Shown here piece after piece: positions 1-10,813 of a stretch of 64,000 nt of DNA (within the stretch, counting starts at the first letter, position 1; every line of letters begins with the position of its first letter). The position numbers were made by a program, and so were the translations under genes. The DNA is from a virus. Its lineage: Duplodnaviria > Caudoviricetes. The DNA lies in IMG/VR virus record IMGVR_UViG_3300044961_000667; one strand, given 5' to 3'. A model generated the notes under the pieces. That model saw only the letters and a list, made by a program, of their open reading frames with translations, ran no database searches and was not told the DNA's origin.

Positions 1-245
1 TCCAACCCGTCCGGCGTACGAACAACAACCAACTCGCCGACGTGAGGCTTCACCATCACCCTCGACACCACGGAACCAGTTCTACGCAGATGGCTGTGCG
101 CCATATCGTAGCTCACTACAACGTCTCCCTCGCGCACCTGCTCGATTGGCACCTGCTTCATCTCCGTTGGAACACCTTGCTTTCCCCGTCCCAGCGACTT
201 GTACCGCTGCGTCACCACCGTCACCATCGTCCCCGGCGGCTGGCA
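1..245 (-). other. Intein N-terminal part inserted at helicase motif III
   Basis: After IGDD the frame continues CQPPGTMVTV (block A) and later KPHVGELVVVRTPDG (approach to block B). Confidence 0.8.
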
Positions 246-989
246 GTCGTCGCCGATCATCATCAGGTTGCCGTCCTTCGTCGCCACCAGCTGAGCCAGC
301 TCGATCTGCGCCTTGTTGTTGTCCTGGCACTCGTCGACCATCACGTAGCGGTAGCGCTCACGGACCTCCGCCCGCAGCCGCTCGTTCGACGAGAGCAGCT
401 TCCACGCGTAGTAGAGCATGTCGTCGAAATCGAGCACCCGCTCTTCGTTCTTCCGCTTCTCGTACAGCGAGTAGAAGTCCGACATCGACGTCGCCTGGTG
501 GTCGGACAGCAGCTGCTGCCGCATCTCCTCCGGGCCCATCAGCGAGTTCTTCGCCTTCGCGATGGCGATGATCACGTCCTCCGGCAGCCACTCCTCCGTG
601 CGGTAGCCGAGGTCCTTGATGACGTTGATGATCATCGTCTTCTTGTTCTTCAGCACCGTGTAGCCGCCGTACCCGTTGTTCCGCAGCAGCGAGAAGCCGA
701 AGCTGTGGAACGTCGAGATCGTCGGCCGGCGCCCTCTCACGCCGAGGTTCTCCATCAGGTCGTCGAGGCGACCGTTCATCTCCTCCGCGGCGTTCTTGGT
801 GAACGTCACGGCGAGAATCTGGCTGTCGGGGATGCCGCGGGCGAGGAGAGCCACCACGCGGTGGATCAAGCACCTCGTCTTCCCCGCGCCTGGGCCGGCA
901 ATCACCAGGCACGGTCCATCGAAGTGCTCCGCCACCTTCTGTTGGGCCTCGTCGAGACCCGACAGAACCTTCTGCAGATCGTTGCTCAT
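1..989 (-). CDS. uvrD: UvrD/PcrA-family SF1 helicase, N-terminal part (runs off window), intein-containing; absent from ORF track
   Basis: Own translation from ATG 989 (RBS AGGGAG): MSNDLQKVLSGLDEAQQKVA..PCLVIAGPGAGKT..LAVTFTKNAAEEM..TFHSFG..LDFDDML..YVMVDECQD..MIGDD; motifs Q, I, Ia, II and III of UvrD. Confidence 0.93.
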   Translation of the reverse strand, partial: MSNDLQKVLSGLDEAQQKVAEHFDGPCLVIAGPGAGKTRCLIHRVVALLARGIPDSQILAVTFTKNAAEEMNGRLDDLMENLGVRGRRPTISTFHSFGFSLLRNNGYGGYTVLKNKKTMIINVIKDLGYRTEEWLPEDVIIAIAKAKNSLMGPEEMRQQLLSDHQATSMSDFYSLYEKRKNEERVLDFDDMLYYAWKLLSSNERLRAEVRERYRYVMVDECQDNNKAQIELAQLVATKDGNLMMIGDDCQPPGTMVTVVTQRYKSLGRGKQGVPTEMKQVPIEQVREGDVVVSYDMAHSHLRRTGSVVSRVMVKPHVGELVVVRTPDGL

Positions 990-1046
990 TTGCTCTCCCT
1001 TGGTGCCACCTGTTGCCCGTTGAGTGTCGGGGTCACCACCAAGCAG

Positions 1047-1080
1047 ATGAAACCACCGTTTCTCCTGCTTTGTCAAGAGG
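1047..1080 (-). promoter_or_regulatory. CCTCTTGAC-family sigma70-like promoter
   Basis: CCTCTTGACA overlapping the dam stop codon; weak -10. Confidence 0.65.
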
Positions 1081-2475: not shown

Positions 2476-3509
2476 CGCGGGAACTCCTGGATCTGAAGCT
2501 CGGCCGGCCACTCAGCCGGAACGGCACCGTGGTGCTCCTTGAAGAGCACCGAGAAGTACGTCGGCTGGTCCTTCAACGCCTTGCCGTGCATCGGGCCCAT
2601 GCGCCCGCACAGATCGGAGTCGACGTTGCTGATCGGGTTGTCGCCCATCTGCTTCACGAAGGGCGTCACCTTCGCGGCCCTGCACTGCTCGACGATGGAG
2701 CGCGCCCACGAGAGATCGAACGCTCTCGCCTTCGAGCCGCTCTCGCCACCGACGATGACCCAGTGCAGGCCCTGGCCCATCTTCACGTTCGGCACGAACT
2801 GGGCGGTCTTGTCCGCGCACGACGCGCAGAAGCTCTCGCTCTGCTTCGCCGTGGTGTTCGCCGCCTTCCAGTCGTACGCGCACTTCGAGCACTTCCACAG
2901 CTGCCCGAGCCACTTCGACAGGTCCAGCGGTCCCAGCAAGGGCTCGCACGACAGGAACCGCACCGCCGCGGGGACCGACAGCAGCAGCGGGATCCGGACG
3001 TCGGCAGCCTCCTGGTTCTCCACCGTCGTCCCGAGCCACACGTTGGGCGGCGGCGTTCCATCGACCCACGCCTGCAGCCAGTCGACGGTCTCCATCGGCA
3101 CATCAGGAGTCCTGACGAACGCGTCGATCGCAGCCGACAGGTGGCGCTTGATGTTCTGCGGCCTCTTCGTCAACAAGAGCCAGTCCAGGTTGGGCGTGCT
3201 CCTGATCAGGTGGAACAGCTCCAGCCTCCACACGTCGGAGACTTCCTCGTCGAACACGTCGGAGAGGGACGAGCAGAAGACCCTGGGCCTCGTGCCGGCG
3301 AGCTTCGCCTTGCGATCCCACGACAACGGCTTCCGCCAGTTCGACGCGACCGTCCTTCTCCGCGGCGCTCCCTTGCCCCAGTTGCCGCCGTCGAACCGCT
3401 TGTTCCGCGTCTCGGCGTAGCAGTTCGTGCACCCGGCCGAGACCTTCGTGCACCCCTCCCATCCGTTGAACGTGGCATCGCACCAACTGATCGCAGTCGT
3501 GTCACCCAT
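2472..3509 (-). CDS. Phage Gp37/Gp68 (DUF5131) radical-SAM-like protein with inserted Cys4 segment
   Basis: ISWCDATFNGWEGCTKVSAGCTNCYAE, RVFCSSLSDVF, LLLTKRP, NVWLGTTVENQ, RFLSCEPLLG, WVIVGGESG, FVKQMG. Confidence 0.92.
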   Translation of the reverse strand: MGDTTAISWCDATFNGWEGCTKVSAGCTNCYAETRNKRFDGGNWGKGAPRRRTVASNWRKPLSWDRKAKLAGTRPRVFCSSLSDVFDEEVSDVWRLELFHLIRSTPNLDWLLLTKRPQNIKRHLSAAIDAFVRTPDVPMETVDWLQAWVDGTPPPNVWLGTTVENQEAADVRIPLLLSVPAAVRFLSCEPLLGPLDLSKWLGQLWKCSKCAYDWKAANTTAKQSESFCASCADKTAQFVPNVKMGQGLHWVIVGGESGSKARAFDLSWARSIVEQCRAAKVTPFVKQMGDNPISNVDSDLCGRMGPMHGKALKDQPTYFSVLFKEHHGAVPAEWPAELQIQEFPR

Positions 3510-4893
3510 GCAGTTTCTCCATCCTGGTTTTCAAGTCCTCGTACCGCGCCATCCATCGGGCTCGCGTTTGCCGCCAGTCGGGCCACTCCGAGACATCCAG
3601 GCCGGGCACCTGCTGACCGGTGCCCTGCCACTTCTCGGGACGCTCCTCGATCGGGAACATCACCGTCGCCTCGGTGCCGAACACGTCCATGTCGGCCGTC
3701 TTCACGACGCCATTCATCGGCCATCGGAAGCGGAACTGCTGCGCCAGCGCGTTCATCAGCTTGTCTTCGAGCGGCGCGTACAGCGGCTTGAGCAACATCT
3801 TCACCGGACTCGGGATGTCCTTCAGCCCGAGCCCCTCGGAGGCGTCGTGGAAGAGGCCGTCCCACGCGCACAGAAGACGCTCCACCTCATCCTTGCCGGC
3901 GAGCTGCTCCGCCCACAGGCTGACGTTGATCGAATGCTGCGCCACTGAGTTGTGGGCCCCGAACCCATCGGCGAAATACGTCCTCGTTGACGTCTCCATT
4001 GCGACTACCGGACCTGGCGAAAGCTCCTCCGCCGCCACAACCTCTAACGTCTCGATGCTCGGAAACTCAAAGGGCGCCGACCCGGCCTTCAGCGCCGTCT
4101 GCAACTTCTGCATGAGACGCACCGGCTTGATGGTCCCAAACAGCCGAAAGACCTCACGCCACCCGCCAAGGACTCGCAGATTCATCACACCAGTCTTCTT
4201 GGACTTCGGGTCGATGCGACAAGCAAATCCGGCCTGTCGAAGAAGACCGCTGGCCGCGTCGAGAACAACACCCGGCTTCTGAGCAAATCCAGTTGTCGTG
4301 CCACGCGACCTGGACCCGGTCGTAACATGACCCTCCCCGTCAAAGATTCCAGCAAGGTATCCGGTCTCGTAGGTACGAACCGTCTTCCATGGAGTAGCAA
4401 ATCTCAGCATGTGAACCCGAAGCCCACCAAGCACAGCGTCGGCTATCTGCCTGGCCGTTCTCCACCTTTGGTTTCTCGACTGCCGCATGGCGATAAGCCA
4501 TGGGTGCTCCACCGACGTCGTAAGACTCGCTCCATCAGACAGCCACAGCCTCACCCTCGGTCGGATGATGATCTCGTGACGGAGAACGTTCGCCAAACGA
4601 AGACGACGACGCGGCTTTGGTCCTCTTCGTTTCGTCGGGAACTCATCGAAAGCAATCAGCCCAGCCCCTGTAGACAGGTCTCCAGCTGGAACCCACCCGA
4701 AATCAGAAGTCAGAACCAACGACTCCGGAGACACACAGTACGGGTACGGCGCCTGCCCTCCGTACCGGGGCTCGATCGACAACCCGTGAGCGATCTGCTC
4801 CGCAGTGAACTCCCCCGGCCTCGGGTCCGCGGGGAAGAACATCCCCGAGTTGAGCAACTGGCACCACGGACCTCTCGAACCCTGAAGCGGCAT
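3502..4893 (-). CDS. HD-domain phosphohydrolase (YfbR-like deoxynucleotidase) interrupted by an intein
   Basis: IAHGLS..RYGG..Y|intein|SVAQHS..LFHDASE; RBS AGAGGGAG. Confidence 0.88.
   Translation of the reverse strand: MPLQGSRGPWCQLLNSGMFFPADPRPGEFTAEQIAHGLSIEPRYGGQAPYPYCVSPESLVLTSDFGWVPAGDLSTGAGLIAFDEFPTKRRGPKPRRRLRLANVLRHEIIIRPRVRLWLSDGASLTTSVEHPWLIAMRQSRNQRWRTARQIADAVLGGLRVHMLRFATPWKTVRTYETGYLAGIFDGEGHVTTGSRSRGTTTGFAQKPGVVLDAASGLLRQAGFACRIDPKSKKTGVMNLRVLGGWREVFRLFGTIKPVRLMQKLQTALKAGSAPFEFPSIETLEVVAAEELSPGPVVAMETSTRTYFADGFGAHNSVAQHSINVSLWAEQLAGKDEVERLLCAWDGLFHDASEGLGLKDIPSPVKMLLKPLYAPLEDKLMNALAQQFRFRWPMNGVVKTADMDVFGTEATVMFPIEERPEKWQGTGQQVPGLDVSEWPDWRQTRARWMARYEDLKTRMEKLHG
3949..4737 (-). 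other. 263-aa intein with LAGLIDADG endonuclease
   Basis: Starts CVSPESLVLT, contains YLAGIFDGEG, ends TYFADGFGAHN followed by Ser(+1). Confidence 0.92.
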
Positions 4894-5488: not shown

Positions 5489-7283
5489 TCAGGCCCTACG
5501 CCCTTCTCCTGGGAACAGGATGTCGCTGGCCCTCATGGTGGCGTGGTGCTCTTCATCGATGAGGCCAGCGCGGCGGAGTGACGACAGGTAGTCGGCGAAC
5601 GTTCCACCCGACACCTCCATCTCAACCATCTCGGCGAGTTCCTCTCGCGTCATCCAGCTCGGGTACGACGCGACCAGCACGTTCAGCATCTTCCTCGCGC
5701 CAGCCTTCAGGTTCCGGCTCCACATGCTCACCAGCTCGTGAGTCGAGGCCGGCGCCGATCGGGCCGCGGGTCCCAGGAACTGCATCCCGGACGCGGAGAT
5801 CTTCAGCGACTGAGCGTTCTCCTCCACCAACCCAGCCCGACGGAGCGCCGAGAGGTAGTCGGCGAACGTCCCGCCCGACACCGCCATGCCAACCAGGGTG
5901 GCCAGCTGCGGCCTGGTGGTCCACGCGCCCGGTCGCGCCGAGAGAGCGATCAACATCTCCTTCGCCCCCTTCTTGATCGTCACGTCGCCGATCGCCTGCG
6001 GTCCCGGCCGCGCGTACTGCGCGAGAGCCTTCTTCACCGACTCCGGCAATAGACGAGGCTCCGGTGCGCGGGGGCATCGGGTTGTGCGGCGGGTAGAGCC
6101 CCGGTCCGATCACCTCATGGGGGTTGAAGGCCGGCATCGCCGGTTCGACGTGAGGGCGACCGATTGAACGTGCAATCGATTGCGCAGCATCCTTCGTGTC
6201 GGCAGCCGCACCGGCCAGCTTCTCCGCCGCCTTCTCCAGACGCTTCAGCTGCTTTTCGGTCAACACCGGAACCTCCTTCACGACTTCCTTGATCTGCACC
6301 TTCGTTTCGGTCGGCCGACTCTTCAGCTCGCCTTCCAGCTGAAGAATGCGACGCTTCAGGAAGTCGGGGTCTGCCTTCTCGGCGTCCTCCACCATCGACT
6401 TCAACGACTCACGCAGCTTGGCGACGTCCACCGCGGCCAGCCTCTTCGGCTCGACGAACTCCTCGCCGAACTCCGGCGTGGCCGACGAGTCGAACGTCAG
6501 CTTCCGGTTCACCTTCACCGTCCGCGACACCTTCAGAAACGACGGGCTCCACAGGTGCGCCATCCCCGTGTCGAGCCCTGGCAGGGTGTCAACCAGACTC
6601 AGTTCTTCCGCCTTCGTCACCTTGTCGCTGACCCACGCGATGATCGCCTTCTTCTCGTGGCTGCCGATCGTGCGGTGAGCGAGCACTGTCCCTGCCTGGT
6701 TCAACACCCGCTTGTGCACCGCCTGCGGCTGCTGAGTGATCAAGGACCAGCCGACGCCGTAGTTGCGCCCGAGCTTCAACAGCCGCTCAACTCGGTTGAG
6801 CATGACGCCTTCGTCCTTCTCGGGCGTCTGAGGGGCGAACGTCTGCGCTTCCTCCCAGAAGACGTGCACCGGCGACTTCGACTTCTTCTTGGCCTGGAAG
6901 AACGCCTCGGCGAAGTCTCGAACGAACCGCTTCGTCTCCGCCGTGGTGAACTCCGACACGTCGAGCACCGCGGAGATCTGCTTCTCCACGAGCACGCTGG
7001 CCATCAGCCCGCCCTACTCTGGCGTGAGCGGCAGATCGCCATGCTCCCCGCCAAAGACTGTGATCGCGAACCCATCCTTCTTGCCGTCCGCAGAGCTTCG
7101 CAGCCCCCACCAGACGCCCACGGGATCAAGAGCGCCAACCTGCGCCCCGACCTCCAGCATCAGCTCGGCCAACTTGGTCGCGGAGTACGTCTTGCCGCCG
7201 CCGCTTTGCCCCAGGAAGGCGAACTTCTGCGTCACAGCTGCCAGCGGCAGCCCCAACCCATCTGCAAACGCGAGCGTCTTCAT
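5489..7283 (-). pseudogene. HerA/DUF87-like P-loop ATPase with two C-terminal winged-HTH repeats, broken by an in-frame TAG (7014-7016) and a +1 frameshift near 6070-6074
   Basis: FAFLGQSGGGKTY, LDPVGVWWGLR, VFWEEAQTFAPQ, GRNYGVG..ITQQPQAVHK; tandem SGGTFADYLS.LRRAGL repeats in a second frame. Confidence 0.8.
6171..6184. repeat. TGCAATCGATTGCG palindromic site, copy 1 (coding)
   Basis: Exact match, read directly. Confidence 0.85.
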
Positions 7284-7493: not shown

Positions 7494-7527
7494 GCGTTGA
7501 ACCCTCCGTGCGCGGCGCGCGTCACGG

Positions 7528-7561
7528 AGAGGACAACGGAACTAACTACTTTGTCAAGAGG
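7528..7561 (-). promoter_or_regulatory. CCTCTTGAC-family promoter
   Basis: CCTCTTGACAAAG, intergenic; weak -10. Confidence 0.65.
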
Positions 7562-7590
7562 AGCACACACAGTCTCCTGACAAAACAGCC

Positions 7591-8952
7591 TCAGTTGAGG
7601 ATGTCGGAGAGCCGGGCGGCGGGCGGCGTGGTGCCGCGCTCCACCAGCGACATCACGATCGTCGACCACATCTCCTCGATCACCTTCTGGTGCTCGATCG
7701 TGGCGTCGCCAGACTTGCTGCGCTCGTGAGCCATCTCGTGAACGAGCGTCTCCAGCGTGTCCTTCACGGTCTTCAGCATCTGACGACCGACCAGGATGTG
7801 CTCGTTCTCGCGCAGCCCGTGCAGCGACGGGTCCTTGAACTCCGCGATGCGGAACCGGCTGAGCGGCACGTCCGGCGCCCCGAGCGAGGCGAGAGCGAAC
7901 GCCTTGAGGAACACATCGCTTTCCTCGGTCGTCAGGTCGCTGACGCCGAAGGTCGCCGAGATCAGGTTCTTCGAGTCCGACTTCACCGTGTTGATGGTGC
8001 CGGTCTCCTCCTTGAGCACCTCCAACATGGCCTCAGGGACGACGATGCCGCGCTTCCCGTAGAATGCAGCCTCCTCCATCTCCTGCGGCTGACGGACCGG
8101 GATCGCGTTCTCACCGAACGTCTCCCGGAAGCGGGCGGCCATCTTCTCGCGGAGCTTGTTGCCGGTGTTCCACGTGTACCGGAGGTGCTCGACGTCGGGC
8201 TTGTTCTCGCGCATCAGGCGGTCGACCATCTCGATCAGATCCGGCCGCAAATCGACGGCCTCGTTCCAGATGGTCGCGGTCACGTTCGAGAGATCCCAGC
8301 CGTCGATGAGCCGGCGGTCGCGGTCGATCTTCGCCACGTTGGGCGGCAGGTCGTAGCCGCAGACGTAGTTGCCCACCTGCTGGACGAAGATGCCGCCCAC
8401 GTAGATGTGCCCACGCTTCGACTCGTCGAAGATCACCGCGCCCTTGCTCGTGGCCACCGTGTCAGTCGCCGCCAGCAGGAACAGCAGCTTCCGCTGCAGC
8501 GACTCCCAGTCGGCCGGCTCGACGTCAGCCACCTCGATCTCGATGGCGTTGCGCTCCTTCACGACGCCCTTCTGCACGTCGATGACGAGCACCATCTCGC
8601 CGCCGAACTTCTCCGAAGGGGCGACCTCGGGCACCCACTTGTCGGCGCCAGTGCGGATCACCGTGCGATGCCCACTGTTCACCAGCGCCAGCAACGCCAG
8701 CTTGTAGCCCTCGCCGAAGCGGCCGAGCTGGTCGGTGCGACCCCGCTTGGACGTGTACCCGACGAGCAACGTCCGCGGCTCCAGCGTGGCCCCCTTGGTC
8801 ACCAAGCGGACCATCTTGTCCTTCTCGACGTAGGTGACGGAGAACTCGTGCCCGTCCTTCTTGGCATCGAGGCCGTTCTGCATCAGCTCGCGGATCGCCT
8901 CCCAAAGGGACCAATCAACGTAGTTCTTGCCAATGGTCATTTCGATTTTCAT
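7591..8952 (-). CDS. GHKL (HATPase_c) ATPase with C-terminal HExxH motif
   Basis: Start at ATG 8952: WEAIRELMQNGLDA, LLVGYTSKRG..LGRFGEGYKLA; LVHEMAHE near the C-terminus. Confidence 0.85.
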   Translation of the reverse strand: MKIEMTIGKNYVDWSLWEAIRELMQNGLDAKKDGHEFSVTYVEKDKMVRLVTKGATLEPRTLLVGYTSKRGRTDQLGRFGEGYKLALLALVNSGHRTVIRTGADKWVPEVAPSEKFGGEMVLVIDVQKGVVKERNAIEIEVADVEPADWESLQRKLLFLLAATDTVATSKGAVIFDESKRGHIYVGGIFVQQVGNYVCGYDLPPNVAKIDRDRRLIDGWDLSNVTATIWNEAVDLRPDLIEMVDRLMRENKPDVEHLRYTWNTGNKLREKMAARFRETFGENAIPVRQPQEMEEAAFYGKRGIVVPEAMLEVLKEETGTINTVKSDSKNLISATFGVSDLTTEESDVFLKAFALASLGAPDVPLSRFRIAEFKDPSLHGLRENEHILVGRQMLKTVKDTLETLVHEMAHERSKSGDATIEHQKVIEEMWSTIVMSLVERGTTPPAARLSDILN

Positions 8953-9560
8953 CTTCGTCCTCTCTTGTTCAGCCCGCGCACGCGAGCCATCAGGTCCTTC
9001 ACTTGAAGCCGCAACAACGGAACACCATCTTCGAGACGAGTCCGACAGAACCCAAGAACGATGCTGGCAACATCTCGCTTCACCACCAACAGATTGCCTA
9101 CCGCCGACAAGAATCCACCAACCTCCTGCGCCGTGTGGAGCTGCCAAACGAAGCAGTCTCGTTGCTTCTTCTTCTTGTTGGGCCTGAACCCGATCGTCCC
9201 GACACCCACAAGGGCGACTAGCTCCTCCTGCATACATCTTGTGGCGCTCGCCACGCTGACCCTCGGATTGACCCAGCGCTCGCCGTGCTTACCCAGTCCG
9301 ACGTATCCCTCCCCGTCCACGATTCCGGCCACCCACCCGAGCTTCTCTTTCGGAAGCCCACGCAAGCGACTTTCAAGTTCGGCCCAAGCGCGCTGTCGAA
9401 CTCCGTTCCGAAGTCCTCTGACGATGAGCCAGAAAGCGCTCTCGCTGCACTTGAACCGTGAAACGATCTCGCCGTGATGGACGCCAGACTCGTAGAGCCG
9501 TCGGATTTCTGACTTCTGCTCCTCCGTCAGCCTGGTCTGGAAACCTTTGCTGTTTCCCAT
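8949..9560 (-). CDS. Free-standing LAGLIDADG homing endonuclease with N-terminal HTH
   Basis: KLGWVAGIVDGEGYV; more AT-rich codons; TAGTCT 5 nt before ATG. Confidence 0.88.
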   Translation of the reverse strand: MGNSKGFQTRLTEEQKSEIRRLYESGVHHGEIVSRFKCSESAFWLIVRGLRNGVRQRAWAELESRLRGLPKEKLGWVAGIVDGEGYVGLGKHGERWVNPRVSVASATRCMQEELVALVGVGTIGFRPNKKKKQRDCFVWQLHTAQEVGGFLSAVGNLLVVKRDVASIVLGFCRTRLEDGVPLLRLQVKDLMARVRGLNKRGRR

Positions 9561-9589
9561 GTCTCAGACTAGCACAAAAGTCAACAGAT

Positions 9590-9661
9590 TCAATTGCTTG
9601 CGCCCTCCCACAGGCCCCAGTCCACGTAGTTCTTCGCCACCGACAACTCGATCTTCGCCAT
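9590..9661 (-). pseudogene. Orphaned native 5' end of the GHKL ATPase gene (MAKIELSVAKNYVDWGLWEGASN*)
   Basis: Strong RBS GAGGAGG; peptide aligns with MKIEMTIGKNYVDWSLWEA at 8952. Confidence 0.85.
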
Positions 9662-9721
9662 CTTCGTCTCCTCCTCACATCGCGTTTCAATCGTTCACCG
9701 GCGGGAACCGCCAGCGGTACT

Positions 9722-10762
9722 TCAGAAGGGAATCTCCTCCTCCGACATCTGGCTCAACGTCGCCGCCGCTTCCTCCCGCGGCTTGCTCTCAACCGGCTTG
9801 ACCGGCGCCGCCTGGGCAACCAGCCCCAGCCGCTTGAAGATGTCCTCGATGATCTCGACCTGCCGCGCCGTCAGCGGCTTCGACTGGGTCTTGAACTCCT
9901 GGAGCATGTCCTTCTGCTTCACCGAGAGCCGCCCGCTGCCGAGCAGCGCCACCAACTTCTCCTTCGGGCCCGCCACCTGCGCCACCGCCGCCGTCGGCTT
10001 GGCTCCGAGGTAACGCTGCTCCAGCTCGGTCACGATCTCCAACTGCTTCGGAGAGAGGCTGCCACGGTCACCCAGCTGAACTGCGAAGCTCTCCACCATG
10101 TCGGCTGCCTTCGCCGTCATCTTCCCCGTGGCCTGGAGAAGCGCATTCATCCGATTGAGGAGATCCGGACCCGACTCGTCCATGTCCCGCTCTTCCTTCG
10201 AGAGAACTCGTTCGGCGATGGGCGCCTTCTTCGTCGCCTCCGCCTCCAAGGCATCCCAGTCGGTTTCGGCAATCATCCCCGTCGCCACCTCGATCTGCTT
10301 CACGGTGAGCCGGCGACCCTGCTTCAGCTGGGCCAGGATGGAACTGGCGAACCGATGCCACGGCCGAAGAGTGACGTACCGTTCGAGCATCGTCGGGAGC
10401 GTCTTCTTCGCCTCCTCCTGCTGCCTGGCGATGAAGTCCTTCGCCATGCGCTTCCACTCTGCCTTCGAGGTCTCCTTCTTCTTCGACTCGATCTCCGCCG
10501 CCGTCATCTGACGACCGAGCTGGCGCTCGAAGTCCGCCTGCATCTGCGTCCAGTACGCCTCCGACCAGCTGGCCTGCACCAGCGTTGGTCCGCAGGTGCT
10601 GCCGACCGGGCGCGTCGCCTCCCGATCGTCCAGCGGGTGCACGTGGTACTCGTACCTGAGAGGGGAGCCGCAGATGCTGCACCGACCGCTCATGCTGCCG
10701 AGGTCAGTGACTGATTCGATCGTCCAGCGCCCCTGCTTCGCCAGCTTGCTGATTGCGTCCAT
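9722..10762 (-). CDS. Hypothetical protein with Zn-binding motif and SSB-like acidic tail
   Basis: CSICG..H..STCG; ends EEEIPF; RBS AAGGAG. Confidence 0.8.
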   Translation of the reverse strand: MDAISKLAKQGRWTIESVTDLGSMSGRCSICGSPLRYEYHVHPLDDREATRPVGSTCGPTLVQASWSEAYWTQMQADFERQLGRQMTAAEIESKKKETSKAEWKRMAKDFIARQQEEAKKTLPTMLERYVTLRPWHRFASSILAQLKQGRRLTVKQIEVATGMIAETDWDALEAEATKKAPIAERVLSKEERDMDESGPDLLNRMNALLQATGKMTAKAADMVESFAVQLGDRGSLSPKQLEIVTELEQRYLGAKPTAAVAQVAGPKEKLVALLGSGRLSVKQKDMLQEFKTQSKPLTARQVEIIEDIFKRLGLVAQAAPVKPVESKPREEAAATLSQMSEEEIPF

Positions 10763-10813
10763 CGTTCCTCTCCTTGGTCCCCCTGGGTTGGGGGAGGCGG
10801 TTGGTGTGATTCT

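Follow-up and report, generated by a model that had tools for sequence, protein, structure and literature searches.

Elements known as mORFs have been described in fungal mitochondria, in the atp6 gene of Allomyces macrogynus and in atp6, atp9, cox2 and nad3 of Glomus (PMC3630166). In these elements a free-standing endonuclease open reading frame (ORF), often of the LAGLIDADG type, comes with a foreign, diverged gene end that is joined in frame to the gene, and the native end is left adjacent as an unexpressed duplicate, all without splicing (PMC3630166). Intron-less homing is also known in phage T4, where the genes for the free-standing Seg and Mob endonucleases lie beside their target genes and repair of the break co-converts adjacent target sequence (PMC2988022). 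Here, we report a cassette that shares these features, located within a stretch of 64,000 nucleotides (nt) from a virus of the Caudoviricetes (IMG/VR record IMGVR_UViG_3300044961_000667), the whole of which is referred to below as the window. The cassette carries a LAGLIDADG homing endonuclease gene and sits at the start of a gene for an ATPase-like protein. Taken together, the evidence makes it very probable that an intron-less homing-endonuclease cassette entered the 5' end of this phage gene at the DNA level and mended the damage with its own copy of the gene start.

The locus is described on the minus strand, on which all of the genes considered here lie, and coordinates are window positions (Table 1). 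A sequence-only reading of the window had pointed out a 23-codon stub upstream of the endonuclease gene, the string GACGAAG ahead of the ATG of both the stub and the working gene, and an endonuclease stop codon (TGA) that overlaps the new ATG as ATGA; all of these hold on the minus strand, as do the codon counts that accompanied them. Local alignment of the stub with the working copy gives a score of 79, whereas 200 shuffled sequences reach 35 at most. Non-coding sequence accounts for only 40 nt of the insert.

The uninterrupted form of the gene exists in near-identical phages. P0017, a protein of 454 amino acids (aa) in the 90% cluster of the window's ATPase-like protein, begins MAKIELSVAKNYVDWGLWEGVRELMQ and is otherwise identical, the hybrid protein encoded in the window matching it perfectly from residue 21 onward. 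P0017 is encoded on seven contigs from several samples, six of which (L005-L010) were compared with the window. Gene order is the same, the flanks are 99.2-99.9% identical by blastn, and the alignments break at 9601; the empty allele reads MAKIELSVAKNYVDWGLWEGVRELMQNG / MAKIELSVAKNYVDWGLWEGVRE without interruption. At the junction, the empty allele is ...TGG GAG GGC GTT CGC GAG CTG. Alignment of the junctions shows that the left side of the window matches this sequence through GGC G before diverging, and that the right side matches it from CGC GAG onward. A discrete block of 708 nt replaces TT at codon 20/21. All 61 nt of the stranded native start are identical to the endonuclease-free allele in L005 and L007, moving outward, the first single-nucleotide polymorphisms are met 28 nt before the stub ATG and 269 nt beyond the right junction, and the foreign tract is confined to the cassette, with none beyond 8893..9600. 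The endonuclease gene is therefore polymorphic for presence and absence between otherwise near-identical genomes. The sequence-only reading had predicted that endonuclease-free relatives would run contiguously through the junction into (G/A)IRE, and such relatives were found, with more than 99% flank identity; the contiguity is as predicted, and the residue is V rather than I. Likewise, it was right to place the insertion near the start of the gene, its exact point being codon 20/21 and not codon 19.

Sequencing runs agree with the contigs. A 1.5-kb stretch is complete only in the runs that probably represent the source (a hot spring or microbial mat), and approximately 16 runs from bioreactor, wastewater, soil, sludge and biofilm studies contain one third to half of it. 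Four of these approximately 16 runs were mapped onto 7500-10800. Depth is zero over 8943-9497 in all four, and in three of them, each from a different study (X5, X8 and X13), a single contig continues from one flank to the other without 8893..9600, carrying two different letters in its place. The remaining run (X10) has no contig bridging the site and is uninformative for either allele. An assembly artefact is unlikely, as the endonuclease protein is found in both the JGI and the Logan assemblies and the cassette in contigs of runs X1-X4. A blastn search of the region against 50,697 phage records gave just short, distant matches to Pseudomonas phages, and a scan of viral contigs with the ATPase protein found no relatives. 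As a separate observation, phage DNA that is more than 99% identical occurs in hot-spring mat, bioreactor, wastewater, soil and sludge samples (runs X5-X20) and also in an RNA library of a named organism; for a single phage this range is unusually wide. One such contig measures 123.7 kb and another 200 kb.

The empty form is older than the filled form. The codons GGC GTT are present in neither copy of the filled allele, so deletion cannot yield the empty form; the family consensus MAKIELT..YVDWGL.E.VRE is fitted better by the stub and the empty allele than by the working copy; a distant syntenic relative, L001, has no endonuclease; and the 708-nt block is compositionally foreign. The ATPase-like protein of L001 is 45% identical, and the thymidylate kinase gene, the PolX-like gene, a 358-aa gene and the ATPase gene follow in the same order. 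With regard to composition, the cassette has a GC content of 56.5% versus 63.4% for the window. For codons ending in G or C, the share is 69% (endonuclease gene) and 70% (replacement start), as opposed to 94% (remainder of the ATPase-like gene) and 100% (native start). Codon by codon, 20 of 20 in the stub end in G or C, compared with 14 of 20 in the working copy, where AAA, GAA, ATT, GTT, GAT and CTT end in A or T. The adjacent target-gene sequence has been co-converted, in that 20 codons and the ribosome-binding site are foreign. The replacement and native starts share 41 of 60 nt and 13 of 20 residues, and the replacement lacks codon 2. Synonymous divergence, as originally proposed for the replacement start, does not describe it, since 7 of the 12 differing codons change the residue (the other 5 are synonymous) and one codon is missing. 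The similarity reaches into the ribosome-binding site (GAGAGGACGAAG in the replacement, GAGGAGACGAAG in the native start), and the replacement start looks like the start region of a diverged homologous gene.

An exhaustive HMMER search returned 946 relatives of the endonuclease. Two residues, G79 and K161, show no variation across an alignment of 37 family members, and each of D82, G83, E84 and G85 is retained by at least 90% of these sequences. The LAGLIDADG helix GWVAGIVDGEG (motif residues 75-88) ends in a conserved acidic residue, and E84 is likely to be the catalytic acid. The endonuclease itself has no match in Pfam, and its PHROG match is labelled HNH; among the 37 relatives, Pfam matches comprise LAGLIDADG_1 (12/37) and LAGLIDADG_3 (6/37), plus N-terminal helix-turn-helix (HTH) families. 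A search of the PDB with the single sequence gave no match, and the family profile matches I-MsoI, I-CvuI and I-CreI at 1e-9 to 1e-20. The AF2 model has a pLDDT of 94 with the 37-row alignment and 44 from the single sequence. It shows the alpha-beta-beta-alpha-beta-beta-alpha core fold, and the top 50 Foldseek hits are all LAGLIDADG enzymes, the best being I-CreI chains (E 9e-8, TM-score 0.70 on the target). By fold and profile, the LAGLIDADG identity proposed by the sequence-only reading is genuine. A homodimer model scored 0.74, compared with 0.02 for the best of three controls; among proteins of solved structure, 20 of 30 pairs and 1 of 23 single chains attain this score, counts that are rough because a custom alignment was used. 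The modelled interface is the LAGLIDADG helix (residues 70-84). The model supports, without proving, a homodimer formed through the LAGLIDADG helices, and the high score may reflect likeness to solved I-CreI dimers. As modelled, the protein is an intact single-motif LAGLIDADG endonuclease with the I-CreI fold and an extra N-terminal DNA-binding domain. Its gene is free-standing, as the ORF is bounded by stops and lies outside any intron or intein. An intein was also considered for the insert and is ruled out by stop codons, the stub itself ending in one.

Genomic contexts were examined for the six closest relatives of the endonuclease, which are 41-48% identical. Those in L012, L013, L015 and L016 (42-48% identical), the four closest that have a downstream gene, lie in four unrelated contexts, each immediately upstream of an ATPase-like homologue, the endonuclease gene either overlapping the start of the ATPase gene or ending 29 nt before it; the contexts in L014 and L017 differ from these four. 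The spot just ahead of the ATPase gene is the usual home of this enzyme clade, and in L012 and L015 the surrounding genes are unrelated to those of the window. No upstream stub is found in L012, L013, L015 or L016, where alignment scores fall within the shuffle range, as opposed to 79 for the window. Pooling the window with L012, L013 and L015 (L016 is too short and was left out), the first 20 codons of the ATPase genes end in G or C less often than the rest (50/80 versus 1147/1363, p 5e-6), and three endonuclease-free alleles show no such dip at the start (p 0.48). The first codons seem to travel with the endonuclease gene. A tentative extension, somewhat less likely to be right than wrong, is that the endonuclease gene has co-evolved with the ribosome-binding site and the first 20 codons, the three forming a portable gene-start module dedicated to this ATPase family. 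Such a module would move between distantly related large phages and would leave a stub only where the upstream sequence of the recipient lacks homology to the donor.

The arrangement suggests the following history. First entry would have been from a diverged, lower-GC phage that carried the endonuclease gene between genes, just ahead of its ATPase gene. In a mixed infection, a homodimer of the enzyme would cut the uninterrupted allele at or near GGC G/TT CGC GAG, that is, near codon 21. The presumed cut region encodes the conserved segment WEGVRELMQNG, and homing enzymes favour constrained sequence. The right end of the break would then be repaired via the conserved block CGCGAG..ATGCAGAACGG, of which L012 shares 18 of 21 nt with the native allele. 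The left end, finding no homology, would undergo illegitimate joining to donor DNA at a point 40 nt before the endonuclease gene, stranding the native 20 codons as a stub that stops at the break. Such one-sided repair would account for the stub and the foreign start ending at the same codon. Where homology is available on one side only, illegitimate joining on the other side has been seen in T4 intron-homing experiments (Parker, Belisle and Belfort 1999, as cited in PMC2988022). Once in place, the cassette has native sequence on both sides and could therefore spread to empty alleles by double-strand-break repair in co-infection, without splicing. The junctions of the filled allele differ from the target, at 9 of the 24 nt left of the right junction, which should protect the cassette. 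The empty allele (L005:10058-10066) has a perfect palindrome, TCGCGA, 1 nt to the right of the point of insertion; in the replacement copy (window 8890-8898) it becomes CCGCGA.

Several other accounts of the locus have to be weighed against DNA-level entry. The filled form could be ancestral, with the widespread form having arisen by precise loss of the cassette, and recombination between the two 60-nt copies, which are similar in part, could in principle remove the intervening DNA. However, such recombination would give ...WEAIRE with GCG ATC, in place of the GGC GTT that the empty allele has and the filled allele lacks; together with the fit of the empty form to the family consensus and the foreign composition of the cassette, this makes precise loss very unlikely. 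Alternatively, the insert could be an intron, whether group I, group II or another spliced element, with the stub as exon 1. LAGLIDADG genes are usually encoded in introns or inteins, and removal of 706 nt (not 708) restores the frame as GGC GTC CGC. Nevertheless, an Rfam scan of 8500-10000 at E values up to 1 gave a chance snoRNA match only and no intron family, and the locus shows neither the ribozyme core nor the exon ligation of a group I intron. The insert is coding in all but 40 nt, and it includes an in-frame copy of the exon with its own ATG and a full ribosome-binding site, none of which an intron needs. Furthermore, the joined form is found in DNA runs and reads GTT rather than GTC, one letter away from any splicing product. 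An intron is thus extremely improbable. The sequence-only reading had described a splicing-free element that leaves the native start as a stub, and this is borne out, since the 708 nt begin and end exactly at the limits of the match and no ribozyme is detectable.

Less improbable than either of these, and still unlikely, is that the locus is a dead scar: a single lateral recombination brought the endonuclease gene and the foreign start together, and the enzyme, which may be inactive or aim at another site, no longer homes and is a neutral passenger. Consistent with this, the cassette occurs in the source sample only and the empty allele is widespread, and, in this copy of the genome, the neighbouring HerA-like gene is disrupted by a nonsense mutation and a frameshift, so that the copy may belong to a decaying lineage. 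However, the endonuclease ORF is intact and keeps the family-conserved G79, D82, G83, E84, G85 and K161, and the predicted fold and dimer are modelled with confidence. The stub is also still 100% identical to the empty allele, so the event is very recent. A number of observations nevertheless count against entry of an active homing cassette as we have described it. Near-identical cassette DNA is confined to runs of the source sample, a single sample that offers no evidence of ongoing spread. A donor lineage with a near-identical endonuclease was not found: an exact 47-nt piece of the replacement start has no match in viral or metagenome contigs, and a word-based protein search with the endonuclease returned only itself. 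The presumed cut site, like the presumed immunity of the recoded copy, is deduced only from where the cassette begins and ends. The endonuclease-linked alleles of L012 and L013 keep the central TCGCGA (L013: TTCGCGAA); the broken palindrome is therefore not used as evidence of immunity, and protection is not explicable by that core alone. Of the 46 long ORFs in the window, 8 are likewise low in G/C-ending codons, with no more than 14 in the first 20, so the codon argument by itself is weak to moderate and the empty allele is the decisive evidence. Lastly, the sequence TTGAAT-16-TAGTCT is indeed present 5 nt before the endonuclease ATG, but its proposed role as a promoter is unsupported, as it matches 7 of 12 consensus positions and a promoter scan of 8700-9900 called no site.

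No Shine-Dalgarno sequence precedes the ATG in any of five endonuclease genes (window, L012, L013, L015 and L016), which is compatible with weak or leaderless expression of the endonuclease and proves nothing. Translation of the hybrid gene would start from the imported ribosome-binding site, with ATGA coupling it to the endonuclease stop, and expression would call for no new element. No convincing terminator is found between the hybrid gene and the native upstream operon, and the hybrid gene is probably still transcribed from the native upstream promoter.

The target gene product appears to be a GHKL-like ATP-binding protein. It matches phrog_6077 at E 3e-63 and contains an N-box-like motif, ELMQNGLDA, and atlas leads for it are HATPase_c_3 and MPN635_N. 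The protein has no match in Pfam, and its family profile has none in the PDB; with both searches empty, the label ATPase rests on the motif and the atlas leads. The native start fits the family consensus MAKIEL..YVDWGL. The gene immediately upstream marks the native context, as the same gene is found 60 nt 5' of the uninterrupted ATPase gene in L005-L010, and its homologue 40 nt 5' of the ATPase gene in L001.

Table 1. Features of the filled locus (window positions) and positions of the endonuclease relatives in other contigs
Feature	Position	Strand	Remarks
Upstream neighbour gene, 346 aa, function unassigned	9722..10762	-	Marks native context
Native ribosome-binding site GAGGAGACGAAG	9662-9673	-	Just 5' of native start
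Native ATPase-like gene start, now stranded (ATG + 19 codons + 1 nt)	9601..9661	-	Identical to empty allele
Stub ORF, 23 codons, MAKIELSVAKNYVDWGLWEGASN followed by stop	9590..9661	-	Native 20 codons, then cassette-derived ASN and stop
Inserted cassette, 708 nt	8893..9600	-	TT at the same place in near-identical genomes
Cassette leader, 40 nt, TTGAAT-16-TAGTCT	9561..9600	-	5 nt before endonuclease ATG; no Shine-Dalgarno
Free-standing HTH-LAGLIDADG homing endonuclease gene, 203 aa, motif GWVAGIVDGEGYVG	8949..9560	-	
Foreign ribosome-binding site GAGAGGACGAAG and replacement start	8893..8964	-	Ribosome-binding site within last codons of endonuclease gene
Replacement start	ATG 8950-8952; first 20 codons 8893-8952	-	
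Working hybrid gene, 453 aa, begins MKIEMTIGKNYVDWSLWEAIRE (MKIEMTIGKNYVDWSLWEAIRELMQNGLDA)	7591..8952	-	Foreign codons 1-20, native from 21
Native part of hybrid gene	7591-8892	-	In frame with foreign start
Endonuclease relatives	L012:3016-3600, L013:1022-1627, L015:922-1524, L016:264-923		Upstream of ATPase homologues

Other differences between the window and the near-identical contigs were seen nearby. The HerA-like gene is intact in L005-L010, at 597 aa, and in the window has a TCG-to-TAG change at 7014-7016 and one extra C in a run of C at approximately 6074; these breaks could reflect a decaying copy or a sequencing error. Within another gene (3502..4893, minus strand), positions 3951-4736 of the window encode a 262-codon intein with the LAGLIDADG motif YLAGIFDGEGHV, which interrupts a 200-aa gene. 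Its junctions are ...GGQAPYPY/C...HN/SVAQH; L005-L009 lack it and have the gene at 200 aa. A UvrD-like helicase gene (3..1076, minus strand) runs off the window, and its identity to L005 ends at 240, within motif III (GDDCQ); the extra sequence at 1-240 looks like the start of an intein. In L006, which is endonuclease-free at the ATPase site, a different insertion of 483 nt (L006:7266-7748) contains a LAGLIDADG-type ORF, WWVTGIIDGEGCL. It lies exactly at the stop codon of the PolX-like gene, the last six PolX codons are recoded (EPSDRD-stop versus EPTDR-stop), and there is no stub. This insertion looks like a 3'-end counterpart that arose by two-sided conversion.

Given this evidence, the cassette can be placed among described systems. 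The encoded enzyme resembles I-CreI, I-MsoI and I-CvuI in fold, profile match and the presence of one LAGLIDADG helix per chain. However, those enzymes are approximately 20% identical to it, their genes lie in group I introns within rRNA genes, and they have no counterpart of its N-terminal HTH domain of roughly 65 residues. The free-standing T4 enzymes are of the GIY-YIG or HNH type, and LAGLIDADG is not mentioned in the review that covers them (PMC2988022), whereas the cassette enzyme is of the LAGLIDADG type; the natural T4 genomes described there also show no stranded duplicate of a gene start, which the cassette leaves behind. In its passages on duplications, remnants and truncations, a 2023 survey of phage endonuclease genes at recombination boundaries (PMC10448857) describes no stranded gene start, and a limited literature search returned no phage precedent for one. 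The filled and empty pair fixes the insertion point to the nucleotide, and provides a precise, testable target for this new HTH and LAGLIDADG enzyme family of approximately 200 residues. For genome annotation, short orphan ORFs 5' of endonuclease genes may be stranded gene starts, and the gene downstream may be a hybrid. The closest parallel is with the mORFs, with which the locus shares the foreign, in-frame gene end and the stranded native duplicate. However, mORFs replace the 3' end of mitochondrial genes in eukaryotes, whereas the cassette replaces the 5' end of a gene in a large bacteriophage and, unlike mORFs, brings a ribosome-binding site and a start codon, with the endonuclease stop overlapping the new start. 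The cassette therefore works like an mORF, as a mirror image at the 5' end, and falls outside that group. The principle is known already; the value of the case lies in an exceptionally clean natural pair of filled and empty alleles, with a testable target for the enzyme family. Bringing one's own gene end, a strategy known for 3' ends in fungal mitochondria, thus works at the 5' end of a phage gene as well, start signals included.

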